45,172 nt of DNA from the IMG/VR virus record IMGVR_UViG_3300009285_000020, positions 1 to 45,172 of that record; one strand, 5' to 3'. Under the pieces are notes generated by a model. It saw nothing but the letters and a program-made list of their open reading frames with translations, was not told the DNA's origin and ran no database searches. The stretch is from a virus. Positions 22,298-39,429 of this stretch are shown one piece after another. The stretch's first letter is position 1. Every line of letters begins with the position of its first letter. The position numbers and the translations under genes were made by a program.

Positions 22298-24010
22298 TTA
22301 GCCTTCTTGCCCCACCATGCCGCCATCGCCGCCCAACATGGGGAGAGAAAGAACTTCTCCCATTCCTCCTGCGAGGGCGTTTGCATACATCATCTCCTGT
22401 TGCTGCTGCTTCTCTTCGTCTATTGAAGGAAGCAGGGAATCCTTTTGGTTGAGTGTCAGCGTTTCCGTCGCGGCTCTAAGTAGCCCCGGAATCAAGTCGG
22501 GATACCGCTGAAGGATCGTCGGGTCCATCATCGCCAACGATTGCAAGCTCTGGGCCATCAGCGCCACTTGCTGCATCATCGCTTCTGGCGTGGCATTGAC
22601 GACTTCGCCCTGCGCCTCGTACCAATACGGCATATCGAAGTCTCGCTTCGTCAACCCTTGGGGAAGCGCGTCCGCATACCACGGGTACCAGTCCTCGAAA
22701 TGCTCGTACAGCAGATCGCCCACCACGTATTCCGCCATCTCGGAAAGCCCGAACCCCGCATTGAGCGTATCGGTGTCAACACCTGCGTCCTGGCCAGCCG
22801 CTACCCTATTGACTTCGGTTGCGGACCTTCGCCCCCCTGCAAGAGCTACACCAGAAGCATTGGCCGACATCTTGCCCGCAATGTCGGCGTCGTCCCTTGC
22901 CATCTGAATAAGGGACGGGAACGCGGCTAGATCCACCTGGCCTTGCGGGGTGAATACCTGCCCACCCCTCTCAATCGGATACACCATCGCGGGCTGAGCC
23001 TGGATTACGTCATCCGGCAGGCTCCAATTCTCAGCGAACATCGGCTTCATGGCCGTCCACATGGACAGCCACACCGTCAGGTTCCGCATATCGTTAGCAA
23101 AATACTGAGGGCCTAACAGATTCGCACCTCGGCACTTCTCCCGGTACCAGCGGTTGTACTCTTGATGCAGGAAAAAATCTACACATGGGCTCTTTCGATA
23201 TTTCCAAGGCTTGATAGAAAGAAGCTGCCTGTCATCCCAAGCATAATGGACAAGCCATAACTTCTCCTCCCCGTTGCCGTCAAAATCGAGAGTCGAATAG
23301 AGTTCGTAGTACCGGACCTTCTCAAACTTCCTGTCTGGGGAAGTACCACTTCGATCTTGAGCAATTCGTTCGTCAAGCTCGTCAGGCGTAGCTGAACCAG
23401 ATTCGATCTTGACTGATTCGTAGTATTCGCCAGATTCCTTCTTCTTGCGAATCTGGTCCACCGTCTGATCGGACAAATGCCCGTGCAAAACCGTCTGATC
23501 GAGAGTTGCAACGAACGTCGGGAACACAATGAAGTGAAGCGGATCAGCCGAGTCGATCTTGAGATACGGGTACCTAGTCCTGCCGTTAGGCCAAAACCCC
23601 GAAGGCATGTACGTAGCCCTAAGAACCGAATTGCCCCGCCTTTGCATCACATCGAGGCCCACCTGAATCTGCAAGGGATACTTAGCCTTCGCATAGTGAA
23701 GCTGCAAGGCTCTCTCGATCATGTCCGCTCTTTGCCCCGTAGGACCGCCTGAGCGCACGTTGACATAAGGATCGACCTTGGACAAGGGGCCAGCGATGAA
23801 AGCCGTCCCCATGTCGATCTTGGGGCCAACAACGGGGAAGTGGTACCAAGGAGCAGTCGGCCAAGGCTTTGCAAGGCTCTGGACTGGCCTGTTTGCCGCT
23901 GCATCGTCAATCTGACGCCATCTTTCAACCAACTCGCCTCTCGCATCCCGCGCCGTCTGGATCATGTCGCCAATCTTGGCGTTCCAATCCCTGCGGTCTT
24001 CCTCAGACAA
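22298..24010 (-). CDS. Portal protein, 570 aa
   Basis: Called from size and position downstream of the terminase. The start is TTG without a clear SD, so it is uncertain. Confidence 0.7.
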   Translation of the reverse strand: MSEEDRRDWNAKIGDMIQTARDARGELVERWRQIDDAAANRPVQSLAKPWPTAPWYHFPVVGPKIDMGTAFIAGPLSKVDPYVNVRSGGPTGQRADMIERALQLHYAKAKYPLQIQVGLDVMQRRGNSVLRATYMPSGFWPNGRTRYPYLKIDSADPLHFIVFPTFVATLDQTVLHGHLSDQTVDQIRKKKESGEYYESVKIESGSATPDELDERIAQDRSGTSPDRKFEKVRYYELYSTLDFDGNGEEKLWLVHYAWDDRQLLSIKPWKYRKSPCVDFFLHQEYNRWYREKCRGANLLGPQYFANDMRNLTVWLSMWTAMKPMFAENWSLPDDVIQAQPAMVYPIERGGQVFTPQGQVDLAAFPSLIQMARDDADIAGKMSANASGVALAGGRRSATEVNRVAAGQDAGVDTDTLNAGFGLSEMAEYVVGDLLYEHFEDWYPWYADALPQGLTKRDFDMPYWYEAQGEVVNATPEAMMQQVALMAQSLQSLAMMDPTILQRYPDLIPGLLRAATETLTLNQKDSLLPSIDEEKQQQQEMMYANALAGGMGEVLSLPMLGGDGGMVGQEG

Positions 24011-24051
24011 CTTGAGAAGTGTGGATTCCGGTTCTGTGGCTAAAGCGTAGG

Positions 24052-24810
24052 CTATGTCAGGACTCCGTAAATGCCCCCGATGTCAATGAACGCTAGGCGT
24101 TCCGACCCCTTTTCTTCAATTGGGAGCAAGGCTCTCCTTTCGTAGAGCACCTTGTCTCCTGGAAAAACATCTTCCACATACTCGCCAACCGCAACAACAT
24201 AGGCAGAATCCTCCATCCGTCTCTTCATGGAATCGGGAAGTTCAATCCCACTTTTCGTCTTACCTTCCTTTTCTGGAAGTTCAACCAAAACGTTATCACC
24301 GAGCGGTCTGAATCTGTCCATCTTCGCATCTCTCACAGCTACTACGCTCTCATGCCAAGGTACATCAGTGGGACGGCCCCTCGCTACTCCACTTGCCCTG
24401 TATGGGCACACAATACCATACAGACGAACCTCGCTCCCCTCTTGGGGCTTATACCCGTCAAGCTCGAAACGATCCATGCGCTTGCCGTCGTCGGGATGCA
24501 CGAGCACAATATCTCCCGGCACAAGGAACCCATCCCCGAACGGGATAGGTTTTCCCCGGACTTCAGCGCACTGGTTGCGTTTATGGAGCTTATGGGGAGG
24601 GTAAAGCCGTCCGCAAGCCAAAACAACGCCCACACAGGGGCGCTTCCGCCTGCTTTCGAGGCCCGTGAGAATGATTCCCCCATCCGTTTCCTTCGGCCTT
24701 GGCAGAATCTCGACCGCGACATGCCCATCCAGCATTCTCAGTCGCTTAGACGCGCTTTCGCAATCAATGGACGCGGCTGACTCTAACCCTGTGCAGCGGA
24801 TGGGTCTCAT
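24052..24810 (-). CDS. Tandem GroES/Cpn10-like protein (two co-chaperonin domains)
   Basis: Domain 1: LRMLDGHVAVEILPRPKETDGGIILTG...GVVLACG...VPGDIVLV...ESVVAV. Domain 2: FRPLGDNVLVELPEKEGKTKSGIELPDS...YVVAVGEYV...PGDKVLY. ATG 24810 follows GGAGGA. Confidence 0.7.
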   Translation of the reverse strand: MRPIRCTGLESAASIDCESASKRLRMLDGHVAVEILPRPKETDGGIILTGLESRRKRPCVGVVLACGRLYPPHKLHKRNQCAEVRGKPIPFGDGFLVPGDIVLVHPDDGKRMDRFELDGYKPQEGSEVRLYGIVCPYRASGVARGRPTDVPWHESVVAVRDAKMDRFRPLGDNVLVELPEKEGKTKSGIELPDSMKRRMEDSAYVVAVGEYVEDVFPGDKVLYERRALLPIEEKGSERLAFIDIGGIYGVLT

Positions 24811-25093
24811 ATTTGTCAAGGTCCTCCAAGTCGTCTACTACGTAAGGGCCGCCTGAAAACGATTCGCCTTGGCACTCCCACTTCTTCCCAACCAGTTTGC
24901 ATATGAAGGCGTGCTTGCGGCCAGGGTTCGTTACATACCGGCACATCGTTTGAGTCTTGAGCACTGCTACCGGCACATCTTCTACAACAGGACTGCCTTT
25001 TGGGAGCTTTTCAAGCTCTTTGATAGCCCTGGCCTTCCTCAAACGGTCCCCTGCGGCCTTTCGGGCCTCTTCCGACATTGGCTTTCTTCCCAT
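24764..25093 (-). CDS. Hypothetical protein, 109 aa
   Basis: Track ORF with an AGGAGAAAGAA RBS directly after the terminase stop. Confidence 0.55.
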   Translation of the reverse strand: MGRKPMSEEARKAAGDRLRKARAIKELEKLPKGSPVVEDVPVAVLKTQTMCRYVTNPGRKHAFICKLVGKKWECQGESFSGGPYVVDDLEDLDKYETHPLHRVRVSRVH

Positions 25094-25102
25094 TTCTTTC
25101 TC

Positions 25103-26962
25103 CTACGTTCTGGCGATTCGAGTCGCTTTCCCCTGCCCAAAGTGCATAATGTTCTTCCGAACTTCGACCAAAACACTCTGATGTGCGTCGTTGCAATTGT
25201 GAACGAGTATGCCATTTGCGAAGAACTCATGTTCACCATCAACCGTTAAGTCGTACACGTTCGCGGTCCCATCGGGTGAGACGCCCCGCACAACGTTTAC
25301 CGCAAGTACGGGTGCAACTTGCAGCGGAAGTCTCAAACGAGTTCCCGCAAACCGTACACGTTCTGTTGGCTCCAATCGGCCTTTGGCTGCGTTGGTGCCC
25401 TTGCCGACATCGCATGGAACAGTACCGAGCCGCATTTCCTTTGGCCTCATAGTCAATCCCGCAAAAATCGCAACGCCTGATCCGAGTAGGTTGTTTCCCG
25501 AACTTGCAGCGAAGCGCATGGACACGATGCCATTCAATTCCTTCTGTGGACCCATGCCACGCTTTTGCGGCATCACGAGCGGCAGCAATGCCCTTCTTCC
25601 CATTCGCGGACAATTTCTCAAAATGCCTGCCGCTGAGATGGTCGAACGGCGAAAGGCACTCAAGATTTTCAAGCCGGTTGTCTGCGCAATCTTCGTTTTT
25701 GTGGTGGACGTGGGACCCTTCTGGGATTGGCCCGTTCGATTTCTCCCAAACATAGCGGTGCAGATATTCGCGCCTGCCGTCCACGTAACCTTTGAAGTAG
25801 ATACGATCCGATCTGCGAGGCGAATCTGGATACCGAACGAATCGGCTTTCGCCAACCCATATTTCCTCTGCGCCAATTCTGCTTTTCTTGGGTCTTCCAC
25901 CAGGCATGATAAAAGCATACCAGATTGAATGGCATCAGCGCGACTAAACTCCCCGTCAGCGTGAACCAGGTGGTTTGCGGTAACGCGGACGGTTTTGCCG
26001 TTGGATGCCAATACTTTTAGTACTGGCGCATTGTTCGCTGTCTTGCCAGACCATGAAACGCGCCTTAGCCCCTTGCGAGTCCACACCCTGTCGCCAACGG
26101 CGACACGTTCGATTGGAACATCCCCGCGCTCCGTAGCAACCAGCGACCCCTGGGCGAGACAATGGCTAAACATGTTCTTTACGGGCTTCAAATACACCAT
26201 TCCTGGCCCTGCTTCGTCATGCGCCTTCGACGGTCTAAGGCAATACGCGCCCCTCATGCCTTCCACCAGCACCGGGCACCCTTGCTCGCAGTAGATTACC
26301 CTTTGCTCCCACTTCGCTTCGTGATCGCCCTCCTGAGAAACCCAATCGGATAGCGCCCAAACTACCGCATCCTCTCTTTGTGGCCAATTGTTCGATATCC
26401 GCTTGATCTTGAAACCGCTTTGCTTGGCAATCTCGTAGGCGGACCGGCCTTCCGATCCACTCTTTGTCATAACGGTCTCATCGCCTACGTGGATCAAGTC
26501 CTGCCAAAATGCGGGAAGGCGCTCCTGCAACTTCTGACGCACAATTGGAGCAAACGTGCCCATTGCCATATTGGTCATCGGAGCAAGCTCAAACAGGAAA
26601 TGAATCTGCCCCTTTGGGGTGATCTGCGCTACTACCACCGCTGGCCGCAAGGTCATGCCGCAATCCCAACCGACGTAATATGTAGACTTTGGAATTAAAG
26701 GTATCGGTTTCTTGCGAAATGCAATTGGCGCATGGCGCTCGTACACGAAGTCCCTGAACACCGGATCGCCTTCAGCAATTGTCTCGTCCATCTCCATTTC
26801 CCTCAGCCATTCCGAGAGCGGTACGCCCCGCATGGCCTTTGCTTTCCACGCTGCGCCCTCCGGCGTGGCAGGGTCCTTGGACGGGTCTGCCGAGTAGTGA
26901 AGCCTGACGACCCTGGCCCCTTCCTGGGTCATGTAGGCATCGCATCCGTGCGGGAAGCTCAC
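25103..26962 (-). CDS. terL: Terminase large subunit, nuclease-domain cistron, interrupted by an intein (297 aa after predicted splicing)
   Basis: The N-extein has ARVVRLHYSADPSKD...YYVGWDCGMTLRPAVVVAQI, an RNaseH-like nuclease motif. The extein junction is ...KNMFSH|CNDAHQSVLV. GTG 26962 is GTGA-coupled to the upstream ORF. Confidence 0.85.
   Translation of the reverse strand: MSFPHGCDAYMTQEGARVVRLHYSADPSKDPATPEGAAWKAKAMRGVPLSEWLREMEMDETIAEGDPVFRDFVYERHAPIAFRKKPIPLIPKSTYYVGWDCGMTLRPAVVVAQITPKGQIHFLFELAPMTNMAMGTFAPIVRQKLQERLPAFWQDLIHVGDETVMTKSGSEGRSAYEIAKQSGFKIKRISNNWPQREDAVVWALSDWVSQEGDHEAKWEQRVIYCEQGCPVLVEGMRGAYCLRPSKAHDEAGPGMVYLKPVKNMFSHCLAQGSLVATERGDVPIERVAVGDRVWTRKGLRRVSWSGKTANNAPVLKVLASNGKTVRVTANHLVHADGEFSRADAIQSGMLLSCLVEDPRKAELAQRKYGLAKADSFGIQIRLADRIVSTSKVTWTAGANICTAMFGRNRTGQSQKGPTSTTKTKIAQTTGLKILSAFRRSTISAAGILRNCPRMGRRALLPLVMPQKRGMGPQKELNGIVSMRFAASSGNNLLGSGVAIFAGLTMRPKEMRLGTVPCDVGKGTNAAKGRLEPTERVRFAGTRLRLPLQVAPVLAVNVVRGVSPDGTANVYDLTVDGEHEFFANGILVHNCNDAHQSVLVEVRKNIMHFGQGKATRIART
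25196..26161 (-). mobile_element. Hint-type intein (322 codons) in the terL nuclease domain
   Basis: Block A CLAQGSLVAT, block B VRVTANHLVH, blocks F/G VYDLTVDGEHEFFANGILVHN, then +1 Cys. Boundary codons were checked on the sequence (TGT at 26159..26161, AAT at 25196..25198, TGC at 25193..25195). Confidence 0.85.
25239..25907 (-). CDS. HNH homing-type endonuclease (222 aa), encoded inside the intein in a different frame
   Basis: YLHRYVWEKSNGPIPEGSHVHHKNEDCADNRLENLE is an HNH_3-like motif, followed by two Zn ribbons (CDFCG..YCSMRC; CTVCG..CGKRC). The ORF frame differs from the intein frame (end coordinates 25907 vs 26962 differ mod 3). Confidence 0.8.
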   Translation of the reverse strand: MPGGRPKKSRIGAEEIWVGESRFVRYPDSPRRSDRIYFKGYVDGRREYLHRYVWEKSNGPIPEGSHVHHKNEDCADNRLENLECLSPFDHLSGRHFEKLSANGKKGIAAARDAAKAWHGSTEGIEWHRVHALRCKFGKQPTRIRRCDFCGIDYEAKGNAARYCSMRCRQGHQRSQRPIGANRTCTVCGNSFETSAASCTRTCGKRCAGRLTRWDRERVRLNG

Positions 26963-27219
26963 GCCTGGATCACCTTGCTTCGCTCTATGTCGAGCAGCCC
27001 TTTGAAGCGCCCTGATAGATGTTTGAGGATTATCAAGAGGCCCTGCATTTCATCGAGCGGTTCTTCGACGGGGCTCTCAAGAGGACTCCCGTCAAGTCCG
27101 ATAATCCTTGTCCTCGAAGGAATGATCCCGGAAGTCTGGCTCCCGCCGATGTGATGCTGGACAACAACCACAACCCGGTCTTCAAACTGAACCGGCGTCT
27201 GAATCTGCTGGATAGCCAT
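26959..27219 (-). CDS. Cpn10/GroES-like small protein, 86 aa, wedged between the terL cistrons
   Basis: PVQFEDRVVVVVQHHIGGSQTSGIIPS...PLDEMQGLLIILKHLSG...LLDIERSKVIQA follows the GroES pattern (PLgDRVlV..kT.gGIvlP..PLdVkvGD.V.f.kyaG..lil.e.DIlavi). ATG 27219 follows GGGGGG. Confidence 0.5.
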   Translation of the reverse strand: MAIQQIQTPVQFEDRVVVVVQHHIGGSQTSGIIPSRTRIIGLDGSPLESPVEEPLDEMQGLLIILKHLSGRFKGLLDIERSKVIQA

Positions 27220-27955
27220 AAACCCCCCGCGCCTTTTCCTTGATTGCGATCCACTCCCGGTTTGCGCTCGCATTGGCAATCGCTACCGCGTGTCCTCCCT
27301 TCTCACCAGGAGGACCTTGGCAGACGATATTGGCTTGGCCCCAAACTGCCTTCACCCTCGCGTAAAGCGAAAGCTCCTCGCACTTGGCCCGCTTCGCGCC
27401 GCCGCCCTGAAACGAATCGCGGTCGGAGTTTACTGCAATGAACATGGCTCCGTTCGGGAACACCAACTTGTCTAACCCCTGCTTGGCCGTGTTGCCTTCG
27501 GTAATAGCGTTAGGCAATCCCCAAGCGGGAAACCGCTTCTGGATGTCGTCGTAGATGAACCAGGACCGCCATACGAAGTCCTTTGCGCCACCCTTGCCCT
27601 CGTACTCCCTGCCACCGTCCAAAATGTCTCCGGGCTCAATCCCTACGTCCCATACGTCTAGAGCGCACATGATCCAAGAGATGATGAGACGCCGAGACTT
27701 GAACACGATGAATGGCTCACCGCCCGACTTTGCCATCCACCAGTTCCAAACGAGGAACCTTACGTACTCCTTTTTGGGAATCGGAACGGCTTGCCCAGTC
27801 GTTTCAAGCCTCGTGCGAACGACCTCGGTGAGGAACCGATACGCGGCCTGCCAAGAATCTTCCCCGTAAGGCATCGGCCAAAGTGGGCCGCGACTCTTCT
27901 CGAACATCCGGCCAATGTCGCCCTGCAAAAGCTCAAGCAATGCGGCGGGCTTCAT
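27182..27955 (-). CDS. terL: Terminase large subunit, ATPase-domain cistron (257 aa)
   Basis: Deviant Walker-A-like FIVFKSRRLIISW (lambda gpA KSARVGYS type), Walker-B-like AKCEELSLY, and motif-III-like IVCQGPPG. The ORF ends at TGA 27182..27184 where the lid/linker would begin. Confidence 0.65.
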   Translation of the reverse strand: MKPAALLELLQGDIGRMFEKSRGPLWPMPYGEDSWQAAYRFLTEVVRTRLETTGQAVPIPKKEYVRFLVWNWWMAKSGGEPFIVFKSRRLIISWIMCALDVWDVGIEPGDILDGGREYEGKGGAKDFVWRSWFIYDDIQKRFPAWGLPNAITEGNTAKQGLDKLVFPNGAMFIAVNSDRDSFQGGGAKRAKCEELSLYARVKAVWGQANIVCQGPPGEKGGHAVAIANASANREWIAIKEKARGVYGYPADSDAGSV

Positions 27956-27991
27956 GTCCGTAATCTATCTTTTCTTCCTGAGAATCGTAAA

Positions 27992-28291
27992 TCAATCTCT
28001 GACCCCCAATTGGAACGTGACGAATATCCGGCCCGGCCTGAGCACGCCTGTCATGCCTCGTAAATCACCCTCGTGCGCGTGCGTGCCTAATGTCAACCGA
28101 GCCCAACCATCTGAACCGATCCGCCCTGAGAGCCGAACCCCTGACACATCGCCTTCGACATCCCCGCCCCTGCCGACAACCATCCGGGCAGGCCAATTGC
28201 CCCAACGGCCCTCCCAGGACCCGGCATAAGGATTGACACCGCCGCCGCCGCAACCCGCGAGAACGAACACCAAAAGTAAAAGAACCCTCAT
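27992..28291 (-). CDS. Lipoprotein, 99 aa
   Basis: MRVLLLLVFVLAGC is a signal peptide with an LAGC lipobox. The ATG forms an ATGA overlap with the upstream stop. Confidence 0.7.
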   Translation of the reverse strand: MRVLLLLVFVLAGCGGGGVNPYAGSWEGRWGNWPARMVVGRGGDVEGDVSGVRLSGRIGSDGWARLTLGTHAHEGDLRGMTGVLRPGRIFVTFQLGVRD

Positions 28292-28518
28292 TCTCGCACT
28301 ACCTCTTCCCAATCGTCAGCATTTGTATTGTCGGAACCAAATCCGACAATACATATGCTGACGATTGGGCATGGCGACGTGTCGAACTTCAAAGCCCAAC
28401 CGCCTGCCGAGTCGTTGCGGAAGTCTGGCCGCCCCCAGTGGAAAATCCCGGAAACACCGTTTGGACGCCGTAAAAGAACCCCATCCGGGTATTTCAACAT
28501 GGCTTCGATAAGAGTCAT
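28288..28518 (-). CDS. DUF2829 (MW1434/Tad2-like) small protein, 76 aa
   Basis: The N-terminus MTLIEAMLKYPDGVLLRR and C-terminus TNADDWEEV match the DUF2829 end motifs (F.EAL.alk.Gk.v.R ... adDWeiv). This is the internal ATG of track ORF 28288..28698. Confidence 0.5.
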   Translation of the reverse strand: MTLIEAMLKYPDGVLLRRPNGVSGIFHWGRPDFRNDSAGGWALKFDTSPCPIVSICIVGFGSDNTNADDWEEVVRE

Positions 28519-28543
28519 CCCTGTACCGCCTCTTCCCACTTGC

Positions 28544-29113
28544 TCATTTCGGCAGTGCCCCCGTTTCCTCCCAAACCCTGATTGACTCTTGCCAAATACC
28601 TTGAGAGAAATCCCCCCGGCGCTCCAATATCCGCCGAATCGCGGCAGGAGTCCGATAACGCCTTCGCATCTCTTGATCGTCGTCCTCCGGTACCCCACCC
28701 CGAACGAAACGGTACCCGCGTGCCAAACCGTCGGACATGATGTCCCACTCCGGATGCCCGGACTCCGCGCTCGGACGAACTACCGCCAAACCCGGTAACT
28801 GAGCCACCAAGCTCCCGTTCACATTGTGCGAAGGACCGTTCACATTTTGAGGCCCACCGTTCACATTTTCGTTCACATCTGCCGAAATGTGAACGGGCTC
28901 CTCCGAAATGTGAACAGGGATGTGAACGGTCTTCCCTAAATCTGGAGCCGCACCGTGAACATCCCTGATGACATTTCCCCACGCCGTTAACGATTTCCCG
29001 CCACGGGATACCGCCATTGCCAACGCAGACTTGCTCGCGCCTACGATCTTTGATGCCTGATCGTAACTTAAATTGAACTCAACTAATAGTGACTTGAACT
29101 CATTGCCATCCAT
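28544..29113 (-). CDS. HTH DNA-binding protein, 189 aa (small-terminase or initiator/regulator candidate)
   Basis: N-terminal HTH LSYDQASKIVGASKSALAMAVSRG. The middle is encoded by the GTTCACAT repeat array (TVHIPVHISEEPVHISADVNENVNGGPQNVNGPSHNVNG). The gene lies between an HNH and terL. M70 of track ORF 28544..29320. Confidence 0.7.
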   Translation of the reverse strand: MDGNEFKSLLVEFNLSYDQASKIVGASKSALAMAVSRGGKSLTAWGNVIRDVHGAAPDLGKTVHIPVHISEEPVHISADVNENVNGGPQNVNGPSHNVNGSLVAQLPGLAVVRPSAESGHPEWDIMSDGLARGYRFVRGGVPEDDDQEMRRRYRTPAAIRRILERRGDFSQGIWQESIRVWEETGALPK

Positions 29114-38223: not shown

Positions 38224-38442
38224 TCACCCCGCATCGCCACTCTTCGACAACCCCGAAGAGTTCATTTCCCACGCATACGCGACCACCGCCAACGCCGAAA
38301 ACATGTGCCCGCTGATACCCCACAAAGGCCCCGGAACAGTCCGCTGACGCATTTTCAGGGGTTGGCCCCTCTTCCCGGTTGGAACGTAGGTTTCCTTGCT
38401 GGAAACGGGACCAAATCGGTCCAACAGGGCAGCGCGTATCAT
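38224..38442 (-). pseudogene. Orphan, diverged copy of a RuvC-like C-terminus (72 codons)
   Basis: IRAALLDRFGP...VPGPLWGISGHMFSALAVVAYAWE aligns with VRASILDRFGG...TPGPLYGVHGHMWSALAVAIYAME of 38971..39429. ATGA overlap with the HNH stop. Confidence 0.65.
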
Positions 38443-38981
38443 AATGCCGCCTTCATGTATCTTGCAATAGCTTCTATCTCAGCAAGCGTGGCGTCTGACT
38501 TGATCCGATTTGCTCTCCATGAGATCACACACACATTGCCTTTCACGTATCCTCGGCCTGGGTCTATTCTGTCAAGCGTCGGCGATCCATCGTGTTGGCG
38601 GCGTGTCGGGTCAGGCTGATACGACATTGGCGTTCCAAAAACCGGGCAAACAGTATGGACAACAATATCACTTTTTTCGAGACTAAATGGCACATTGTTG
38701 CATTTCGCCCTACGCTTCGCCAATCCAAAAATTATTCTTTCGGGGACTGTTCGGCGCTGTGCATTTTCCCTTGCGGTTGTGCGTGCGCGGACGCCTGGCC
38801 TGCGCATGTAGTCTTGTGCGTATTTGGTATAGTAATCTTTGTGGTTTTGGTAATGTGCTCTTGCGCGAGCGCATTCACAATCTTTACATGCTGCTTTGTG
38901 CCCATTTTTGCGGGCGCTTTGCTTGTGGAAGGATTCAAGTGGCTTAACGCGGTGGCATCGGCTACAGGTCTTAGTTGTCAT
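38439..38981 (-). CDS. HNH-family homing-type endonuclease, 180 aa
   Basis: N-terminal CSRC...CKDC Zn motif and C-terminal CPVFG...SPTLDRIDPGRGYVKGNVCVISWRANRIKSD. M132 of track ORF 38439..39374. Confidence 0.7.
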   Translation of the reverse strand: MTTKTCSRCHRVKPLESFHKQSARKNGHKAACKDCECARARAHYQNHKDYYTKYAQDYMRRPGVRARTTARENAQRRTVPERIIFGLAKRRAKCNNVPFSLEKSDIVVHTVCPVFGTPMSYQPDPTRRQHDGSPTLDRIDPGRGYVKGNVCVISWRANRIKSDATLAEIEAIARYMKAAL

Positions 38982-39429
38982 CGGAGTTCTCCATAGCGTA
39001 GATCGCAACAGCAAGCGCACTCCACATGTGTCCATGCACACCATAAAGCGGGCCCGGTGTTGCCTTTTTCCCAACAGCCGTGAGTTTACCCCCAAATCGG
39101 TCCAGAATACTTGCGCGGACATTCCCATCTTTGGCCCTCGAAGAGCCGCAGAAGTGCAGCTTGACCTTGGAGCGGTACACCGGCACGAACCGGTCTCCAA
39201 GAATCTCCATGAGCCGCCCGATGACGAACGCCGTCTCGAAGACCTCCTTCCCAACTGGCATCCCGAACGATTCCAGAAGTTCGACGGCGACGGGGCCGCG
39301 CCGCCATTGGTGCCGCGCTTCGTGCAACATTTCGACGGTCGGAAGCTCCGCCGCCCCAAGCACCGTCTCCCCATTCCAGAGCACGAACGCGGATAGGACT
39401 GGGCCAGGATCGAGGCCCACGAGGATCAT
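38971..39429 (-). CDS. RuvC-like Holliday junction resolvase, 152 aa
   Basis: MILVGLDPG (first catalytic Asp), VAVELLES, and GHMWSALAVAIYA. M8 of track ORF 38971..39450. Confidence 0.65.
   Translation of the reverse strand: MILVGLDPGPVLSAFVLWNGETVLGAAELPTVEMLHEARHQWRRGPVAVELLESFGMPVGKEVFETAFVIGRLMEILGDRFVPVYRSKVKLHFCGSSRAKDGNVRASILDRFGGKLTAVGKKATPGPLYGVHGHMWSALAVAIYAMENSDDN

Follow-up and report, generated by a model that had tools for sequence, protein, structure and literature searches.

The 45-kb contig IMGVR_UViG_3300009285_000020, derived from an uncultured groundwater phage and analysed here over its full 45,172 nucleotides (nt; hereafter the window), carries its large terminase gene (terL) on the minus strand as two separate cistrons with a small open reading frame (ORF) wedged between them. 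The upstream cistron (27182..27955) encodes a protein of 257 amino acids (aa) with the ATPase core of TerL, referred to as chain 1, and the downstream cistron (25103..26962, GTG start at 26962) encodes a 619-aa precursor of chain 2, which bears the nuclease and is itself interrupted by an intein. The wedge ORF, 86 aa long, occupies a third frame (26959..27219), running from an ATG at 27219 to a TGA at 26959. The start codons of the ATPase and nuclease ORFs are 993 nt (331 codons) apart, so that both cistrons share one frame, in which the stretch between them contains four stops, all TGA (27184-27182, 27094-27092, 27079-27077 and 27052-27050); an initial annotation of this DNA, made by a model from the letters alone, had counted at least two. 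At its 5' end the wedge ORF shares 38 nt with the ATPase ORF, and at its 3' end its TGA and the nuclease GTG merge in GTGA (26962-26959). A run of six G at 27228-27223, which that annotation had taken as a Shine-Dalgarno-like signal, lies 3 nt 5' of the wedge ATG, and AAGGTGA is found 7 nt 5' of the nuclease GTG. The coordinates, shared frame, third-frame ORF, overlap and GTGA coupling that it had described could all be confirmed. No promoter or terminator above chance was detected within the interval between the ATPase and nuclease ORFs, and the other large ORFs of the contig include no second TerL candidate; a complete structural module adjoins the terminase genes. The 3-kb terminase region is 99.8-100% identical in about ten more contigs from separate ENA, JGI and Logan assemblies and samples, and the wedge protein is recorded on 21 contigs. 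Assembly error as the cause of the split is ruled out by these approximately ten near-identical, independently assembled contigs.

Database searches with chain 1 returned little. Pfam and PHROGs scans of the ATPase ORF gave zero matches, tblastn against 50,697 phage records gave none, and profile searches against PDB sequences with alignments of 3, 24 and 33 sequences produced nothing meaningful. A word-indexed search recovered three relatives only, all of 257-261 aa, and an exhaustive hidden Markov model search with the ATPase family recovered 187 homologues. An AlphaFold2 (AF2) model from a 3-sequence alignment was uninformative (predicted local distance difference test score, pLDDT, 38), and the model used instead, built on 24 homologues, reached a pLDDT of 88.5 and a predicted template modelling score (pTM) of 0.86. 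Its top Foldseek match in the PDB was the T4 gp17 ATPase (E 1e-7, query-normalised template modelling score, TMq, 0.56-0.58), followed by the TerL proteins of T7, HK97, P74-26, D6E and Sf6, and nearly all of its matches in BFVD were TerL. The structural model and the fused homologues described below thus identify the ORF at 27182..27955 as a large-terminase ATPase, the assignment that the initial annotation had made and on which Pfam and PHROGs were silent.

The catalytic residues of chain 1 (K86, R88, R89, E193 and E194) are intact. The Walker A region of the family is deviant: it contains an invariant K86-S-R88-R89-L-x-x-S93-W94 (KSRRLIISW) without G-K, the K86-SRRLII-S93 part lying at 27677-27700, a type of P-loop that may resemble the deviant one of lambda gpA (KSARVGYS). 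The Walker B and catalytic pair E193-E194 (27374-27385) is invariant across the family. Motif III is more likely to be N228-A-S230 (AIANAS, 27266-27277), judging from an N228 that is nearly invariant across 24 sequences and an S230 that is invariant among the three closest, both placed at the end of strand 222-227 in the model. The Walker B acidic pair and a candidate motif III of a TerL ATPase are hence both present. IVCQGPPG, which the initial annotation had listed among the ATPase-type motifs of this ORF, proved to be neither a catalytic motif nor motif III itself; it is a conserved loop that separates the helix of Walker B from the strand of motif III. In the AF2 model the last helix of chain 1 comprises residues 233-242 (27230-27259).

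Chain 2 consists of an N-extein of 267 residues (aa 1-267, 26162..26962, with TerL nuclease similarity), a Class-1-type intein of 322 aa (C268 to H588-N589, followed by C590; 25196..26161) and a C-extein of 30 aa plus stop (C590-N-D592-AHQ..., 25103..25195) that carries the third catalytic Asp. With the intein removed in silico, the remaining 297 aa match the TerL of Pasteurella phage Pmp11 (BLASTP 6e-16 over spliced aa 51-277, tblastn 2e-9) in an alignment that spans the splice junction, and also match the annotated TerL of Burkholderia phage BcepC6B. In phmmer searches chain 2 matched the C-terminal tails of fused homologues with E-values down to 1e-80. The Asp residues expected of an RNase H-like nuclease, D100 (GWDCG), D161 (VGDET) and D592, align with invariant Asp, D592 of the C-extein aligning with D531 of the fused protein P0005. 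Further conserved blocks are the strand ARVVRLHY (aa 16-23) and EWLREMEMDE (aa 51-60). By these similarities the ORF at 25103..26962 is a TerL nuclease, as the initial annotation had proposed, overlooking both the 322-aa intein and the HNH_3 gene nested within it.

The intein is inserted two residues before the third catalytic Asp (SH/C...HN/CND, slashes marking the insertion ends), and the related locus L001, which has no intein at the equivalent site, reads FFSH/VNDAHQ. It was recognised by Pfam (Hint_2 4e-9, Intein_splicing 4.8e-8), and blocks A (CLAQGSLV), B (TANHLV) and F/G (VYDLTVDGEHEFFANGILVHN) could be discerned in its sequence. Between its splicing blocks, in the endonuclease-insertion region, lies a complete homing-endonuclease gene of 222 aa (25239..25907, minus strand, in the -1 frame relative to the intein; Pfam HNH_3 2.6e-15, phrog_15471 3e-26), over the whole of whose 222 codons the frame of the intein remains open. 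An overlapping frame as open as this has a chance of 0.02-0.12 for the given HNH protein. All 41 HNH homologues inspected are HNH_3-only proteins of 131-234 aa, the closest of about 200-230 aa, and the best one (42% identity, L036 96..875) is likewise nested out of frame in an open TerL intein. C1, the terminal HN, Cys at +1, the Hint blocks and an endonuclease in another frame are all found. Judged by its blocks, the intein is predicted to be splicing-competent, and it is a new member of the recently recognised kind with out-of-frame or antisense endonuclease genes (Gosselin, Arsenault & Gogarten, bioRxiv 10.1101/2025.01.02.630785), a layout comparable to that of a cyanobacterial dnaX intein (bioRxiv 10.64898/2026.09.14.751524). 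It shares with the reported cases the insertion site and the open intein frame, TerL being the host protein in several of them, and differs in having a 222-aa HNH_3 of the free-standing type, whereas those of actinobacteriophages are endonuclease VII-like. Relatives of the nested HNH_3 gene also adjoin packaging genes elsewhere (L035 258..1859; L037 1351..3705), where two tandem copies precede a P22-type portal and a single copy immediately follows a Terminase_6C TerL.

The family was compared through the 80 best cluster representatives (E<1e-30, ATPase profile end included) of the 187 homologues. One-piece proteins of 460-580 aa, some N-terminally truncated, account for 42 of them, and the other 38 are stand-alone ATPases, mostly of 235-285 aa, which end 0-42 aa past the profile end, at the same loop. 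The tails of most one-piece proteins are homologous to chain 2 of the window in phmmer comparisons. Across the junction the closest one-piece proteins, P0005 and P0007, read ...NTSPNTEWQEIKSRAKDQPENNWLEAPVGCAAWISNSGARVLDIHY... continuously, whereas the window reads ...NASANREWIAIKEKARGVYGYPADSDAGSV and a stop, then VSFPHGCDAYMTQEGARVVRLHY... at the start of chain 2. The spacing from EWIAIK to GARV is 32 residues in the window and 25 in P0005, which bears out the suggestion of the initial annotation that nothing is missing from TerL itself. Both cistrons align to intact one-piece relatives, and by these alignments the break sits in a variable loop.

At the DNA level the junction was read in 27 distinct loci, 12 of them fused, including one extra locus from a search of metagenome contigs, and 15 split. 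What lies between the two split cistrons varies widely. The ends overlap by 4 nt in L043, and a gap of 1-2 nt or a stop/start overlap is found in L040, L018 and L014. A single small ORF with overlapping ends fills the junction in the window (86 aa), L002 (31 aa), L013 (67 aa), L021 (55 aa) and L042 (52 aa), and a small ORF together with an inverted lipoprotein-like gene does so in L001. An HNH endonuclease gene occupies the junction of L019, 1.3-1.8 kb with several genes that of L012, L017 and L020, and a terminator-like hairpin followed by an opposite-strand gene that of L041. In the nuclease chains of split loci the first two catalytic Asp are kept throughout and the third in most, and lineages with as little as 20-55% identity to one another still have the split.

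A rough neighbour-joining (NJ) tree built from the ATPase domain shows split forms scattered among fused ones, with at least 23 state changes, and the clade of the window and L001 is set apart from the L002 clade by fused proteins. Because the two forms are interspersed in this way, the tree indicates that fission happened many times at the same loop, and re-fusion may possibly have occurred as well. The split and the wedge are common to the window and L001, whose ATPases are only 55% identical, so this particular split event is old. The initial annotation had viewed the locus as an insertion that fractured the gene. The split itself stands, and insertion as its cause is not established: L014, L018, L040 and L043 are split at the same loop with nothing inserted, and in the near-identical phages L013 and L014, from one sample, the 67-aa ORF is present in L013 only, which implies that the small gene entered a junction already split. 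The TerL family is so far known from metagenomes only, and no description of a TerL family with separate, unrejoined ATPase and nuclease chains was found in the literature searched, the coverage of which was incomplete.

Some one-piece relatives differ in the nuclease part. P0011 combines this ATPase family with a different nuclease domain, Terminase_6C (Pfam), and the one-piece proteins P0059, P0061, P0068, P0081 and P0085 have tails unmatched to the nuclease of the window, which suggests that nuclease modules could have been exchanged at the same junction. The BFVD entries A0A1L2CV01, A0A0N7CAA0 and A0A249XZN8, of 217-261 aa and annotated 'terminase large subunit', match the ATPase model; these short entries come from cultured phages (Pectobacterium phage CBB, Salmonella phage 35) and may represent further TerL in pieces.

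The wedge ORF is protein-coding. In a codon-usage comparison across 73 codons its frame is more likely than that of TerL by about 0.25-0.28 nats/codon, and L001 contains a homologue (30% identity, pairwise E 2e-12) at the same position and in the same +1 frame relation, preceded by a similar G-rich leader and with the ATPase stop at the same place relative to a conserved 'ED'. These comparisons point to a real, fast-evolving gene, whose product falls into only 4 clusters among 5.8 billion proteins. It has no Pfam or PHROG match and no endonuclease motif. The Cpn10-like character that the initial annotation had assigned to it was not borne out, with no Pfam Cpn10 match at E<=0.1 and an hhalign probability of 0.2% against the tandem Cpn10 protein of the same phage. 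That protein, with two tandem Cpn10/GroES domains, is encoded at 24052..24819 on the minus strand, between the terminase and an SU10-type portal gene, is conserved in L001 (6174..6956), L042 (5763..6443) and L043 (1709..2278), and probably prompted the label.

The small junction ORFs are mutually unrelated except for the pair in the window and L001. Because unrelated small ORFs fill the junction elsewhere and some lineages have none, the wedge is most likely a lineage-specific passenger in an insertion-tolerant junction rather than a piece of TerL. The main alternative is a functional third component, acting as an adaptor or clamp between the chains or as a regulator of the nuclease, and its tight coupling to both cistrons, the recurrence of small ORFs at the junction in five lineages, and a position, frame relation and ATPase-stop overlap conserved in L001 at 55% ATPase identity would fit such a role. 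We nevertheless consider this role unlikely. The wedges of other lineages are unrelated in sequence and character (Lys-rich with 31 aa, hydrophobic with 52 aa, and others), four split lineages lack a wedge, and the wedge evolves much faster than its neighbours (30% versus 55% identity) and tolerates a 10-aa indel. A localised hypervariable patch is seen in L023, a contig of 1412 bp that is otherwise identical to the window: the wedge ORF has an in-frame 30-nt insertion (window 27150..27180) and clustered, mostly conservative substitutions (V to L, V to I, V to I, H to Q), and a G to A change at 27342 turns W205 of the ATPase into a stop, so that L023 is possibly a defective variant.

Several routes by which a single TerL chain might be restored were considered. 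Jug phage introns are about 206 nt long, close to the 219 nt between the two TerL ORFs, and with both ORFs in one frame and TerL complete the interval might be a small self-splicing intron, group-I-like or other and perhaps carrying the 86-aa ORF, that restores the terL mRNA. This is improbable. Rfam 15 (E<=1, 24000..29000) gave no intron or ribozyme match, only three weak unrelated ones, and the folding energy of the interval is like that of shuffled sequences (z = -1.27). Furthermore, codon usage marks the interval as coding sequence in the wedge frame; the interval is conserved as protein and not as RNA in L001, and it varies by an in-frame indel; L002, L014, L018, L040 and L043 have just 0-92 nt at the junction, and L001 and L041 have an opposite-strand gene there.

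Recoding into one chain, whether by reading TGA as sense, by a +1 shift at GUU-UGA followed by a -1 shift, or by ribosome bypassing, as already proposed for a Streptomyces phage terminase, is a shade less probable again. The ATPase, wedge and nuclease frames overlap pairwise and all four stops in the TerL frame are TGA, but TGA is the commonest terminator of the contig (25 of 45 ORFs) and makes up 54-61% of off-frame stops, so that four out of four is unremarkable. The contig is without tRNA genes, and neither a canonical slippery heptamer nor a release-factor-2-like CUU-UGA with a suitably spaced Shine-Dalgarno sequence is present. L001 has TAA and TAG in the equivalent frame and interval, other split ATPases end in TAA or TAG, and the L001 counterpart of GUU-UGA is GAU-UGA, so the site is not conserved; the inverted gene between the L001 wedge and nuclease makes fusion impossible there.

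The idea of a broken terL, in a decaying or defective phage or one whose helper supplies terminase in trans, has in its favour that an essential gene is interrupted twice, by the split and by the intein, and that the variant contig L023 has a premature stop in the ATPase. It is very improbable given that the catalytic residues of both halves are all conserved, both halves carry the normal coding signature of the phage, an identical sequence occurs in many samples and projects, the split is maintained across lineages at 20-55% identity, and a complete structural module lies next door. Trans-splicing of the chains by a split intein, for which a fractured terminase of this kind (Dassa et al. 2009) and the intein of this same phage could speak, is effectively refuted by the sequence, as homology to one-piece relatives covers chain 1 up to its last 15 or so residues and resumes at residue 3 of chain 2, leaving no room for intein halves, and neither end has a Hint or intein motif or, following an HN, a Cys/Ser/Thr at +1.

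The position of the break was considered by comparing T4 gp17 285-567 with PDB structures and Pfam domain limits. The crystallised ATPase domain of T4 gp17 (2o0h) ends at residue 360, and the homologous nuclease domain (3c6a), crystallised separately, starts at the equivalent of about 356. Pfam Terminase_6N covers T4 285-370, about 85 residues past motif III (TTT 285-287), and Terminase_6C begins at T4 residue 399, where the first strand with a catalytic Asp lies. In the window just 27 residues of chain 1 follow motif III, and about 95 residues of chain 2 precede the first catalytic strand (GWD100CG). The order of motifs can be followed in both proteins: motif III (T4 TTT at 285; window NAS, chain 1 228-230), the helix after it (present in both, chain 1 233-242), the next beta-strand (T4 FEPYTAIW at 308; window ARVVRLHY, chain 2 16-23), the lid motif (T4 FRQEH at 348; window EWLREME, chain 2 51-57) and the first catalytic-Asp strand (T4 LDCSEG at 400; window GWDCG, chain 2 98-102). 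In the window the chain is interrupted after the motif-III helix, and in T4 there is no break. By motif order and spacing, the break probably lies about 55-65 residues upstream of the ATPase/nuclease boundary, inside the C-terminal part of the ATPase domain, and appears equivalent to T4 residues of about 304-307, not to the domain boundary at which the initial annotation had placed it. The final strand of the ATPase core would then belong to chain 2, together with the lid ('transmission') subdomain and the hinge.

Given that no rejoining route was found and that the region recurs in about ten contigs, a two-chain TerL is the most likely reading, and we put the probability that the halves are never rejoined and work as a two-chain enzyme at roughly three in four. 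Among the outcomes that the initial annotation had left open, two-polypeptide assembly is thus favoured, and a self-splicing element and an inactive gene are disfavoured. The large terminase would be made as two polypeptides that assemble non-covalently. Chain 1 would be a RecA-like ATPase core of 257 aa ending past the helix after motif III, and chain 2, 297 aa once the intein has been spliced out, would begin with the last core strand and continue through lid and hinge into the RNase H-like nuclease, completing the ATPase fold in trans and keeping lid, hinge and nuclease covalently continuous. The ATPase, wedge and nuclease cistrons are co-oriented with overlapping stop and start signals, and are probably expressed from one late transcript and coupled by termination-reinitiation.

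Several points weigh against this interpretation. The two-chain enzyme is predicted from the DNA of an uncultured phage. When T4 gp17 is severed at its linker, both enzymatic activities survive but DNA translocation is lost, according to Rao & Black 2010 (PMC3012670), so that a two-chain motor is not a given. In other phages terL is interrupted by small group-I-like introns of about 206 nt (PMC12880540), a subtype for which Rfam may have no models. The NJ tree is crude, so that its count of fissions and fusions is an order of magnitude only, and some stand-alone database proteins may be gene-calling artefacts, DNA-level confirmation covering 15 split loci. The placing of the break inside the ATPase domain follows from motif order and spacing only: the family profile and T4 gp17 285-567 could not be aligned meaningfully with hhalign, and searching PDB sequences with profiles yielded no match that could anchor the mapping.

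The two-chain TerL can be set beside several known systems. With one-piece TerL proteins (T4 gp17, lambda gpA, HK97, P74-26 and Sf6 gp2) it shares the fold and the motif order, from P-loop (deviant in this family), Walker B, motif III, lid and hinge to an RNase H-like nuclease with three acidic residues, and it differs in that the chain is broken after the motif-III helix and each part has its own stop and start codons. In a 2026 review of packaging motors, TerL is presented as a pair of domains whose linker transmits nucleotide-dependent movement, and split forms go unmentioned. Linker-split T4 gp17 likewise has its ATPase and nuclease on separate polypeptides. The position of the break matters because the engineered T4 cut, at the hinge (about 360), leaves both activities and abolishes translocation; the natural break would lie about 55 residues earlier and, unlike the engineered cut, would keep the lid and hinge joined to the nuclease in a single chain.

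In its logic the nearest parallel is nrdA of Aeromonas phage Aeh1, split by the free-standing endonuclease gene mobE ('genes in pieces'; PMC3045599, described in PMC2677866), a type of precedent that the initial annotation had also invoked. Both are essential enzyme genes in two cistrons of the same operon, with an intervening ORF overlapping the downstream fragment and no rejoining at the RNA or protein level, the Aeh1 halves being thought to assemble non-covalently. The layout thus corresponds, but the wedge has no endonuclease motif and so does not fit the role of a homing endonuclease, and the split here is family-wide, recurrent and also found without an insert; among the relatives, the L019 junction holds an HNH gene.

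Intron-split and split-intein terL genes are closest in subject, and their defining sequence features were looked for here and not found. The split-intein fractured genes (Dassa et al. 2009, PMC2677866), one of them a gp17-like terminase, have a gene in pieces, an ORF between the pieces and overlapping ends in common with the window. In contrast, no split-intein halves flank the present junction, so that no protein ligation is expected, and the intein of this phage is contiguous and lies elsewhere, in the nuclease active site. The terL genes with group I introns in Jug and crAss-like phages (PMC12880540) are annotated as two to three fragments with a similar interval of about 200 nt, whereas the window has no intron match, no excess RNA structure and a coding wedge, and its relatives have 0-92 nt.

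Additional features were noted around the terminase genes. A lipoprotein-like small ORF (27992..28312, minus strand), with a signal peptide followed by Cys, lies upstream of the ATPase gene; its homologue in L001 (4497..4811, minus strand; 33% identity, E 3e-8) is inverted within the ATPase/nuclease junction and shares CATG with the nuclease start codon. Directly upstream of this ORF in the window, at 28310..28367 and some 350 nt ahead of the ATPase gene, an almost perfect inverted repeat of 27 bp forms a predicted hairpin of -54.5 kcal/mol (z = -10 against shuffles), which may be a terminator, operator or packaging signal; Rfam gave only spurious microRNA-like matches for it on both strands. 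Farther away, a 311-aa ORF (38439..39374, minus strand) matches endonuclease VII / HNH families (phrog_3322 2e-32, phrog_1035 8e-30) and is a second His-Me-finger nuclease gene of the contig.

A wider proposition, that this TerL family switches repeatedly between one-chain and two-chain forms, with the break inside the ATPase domain, its fold completed in trans by the chain bearing lid, hinge and nuclease, and the open junction serving as a landing pad for small genes and homing endonucleases, seems to us evenly poised between holding and failing. The junction behaves as a hot spot for insertions and offers a small case study of how mobile genes colonise essential phage genes. Such terminases will be overlooked or cut short by annotation pipelines and in phage phylogenies based on TerL; outside the intein, neither half matched the terminase models of Pfam or PHROGs. 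It can also be speculated that fission could alter recognition by TerL-sensing immune receptors such as Avs.

In current packaging models TerL is one chain, and the nucleotide-driven movement of the ATPase reaches the nuclease/translocation domain via a lid and linker. With the break upstream of the lid, the lid-hinge-nuclease unit would remain whole, with strand complementation as a possible glue between the chains. If this holds, a two-chain TerL that is widespread in nature and has evolved repeatedly would mark a position that tolerates a chain cut, would provide ready-made separable subunits for structural biology and a direct test of which covalent connections are needed, and would be a natural demonstration that packaging can do without a covalent link from the ATPase core to the remainder of TerL.

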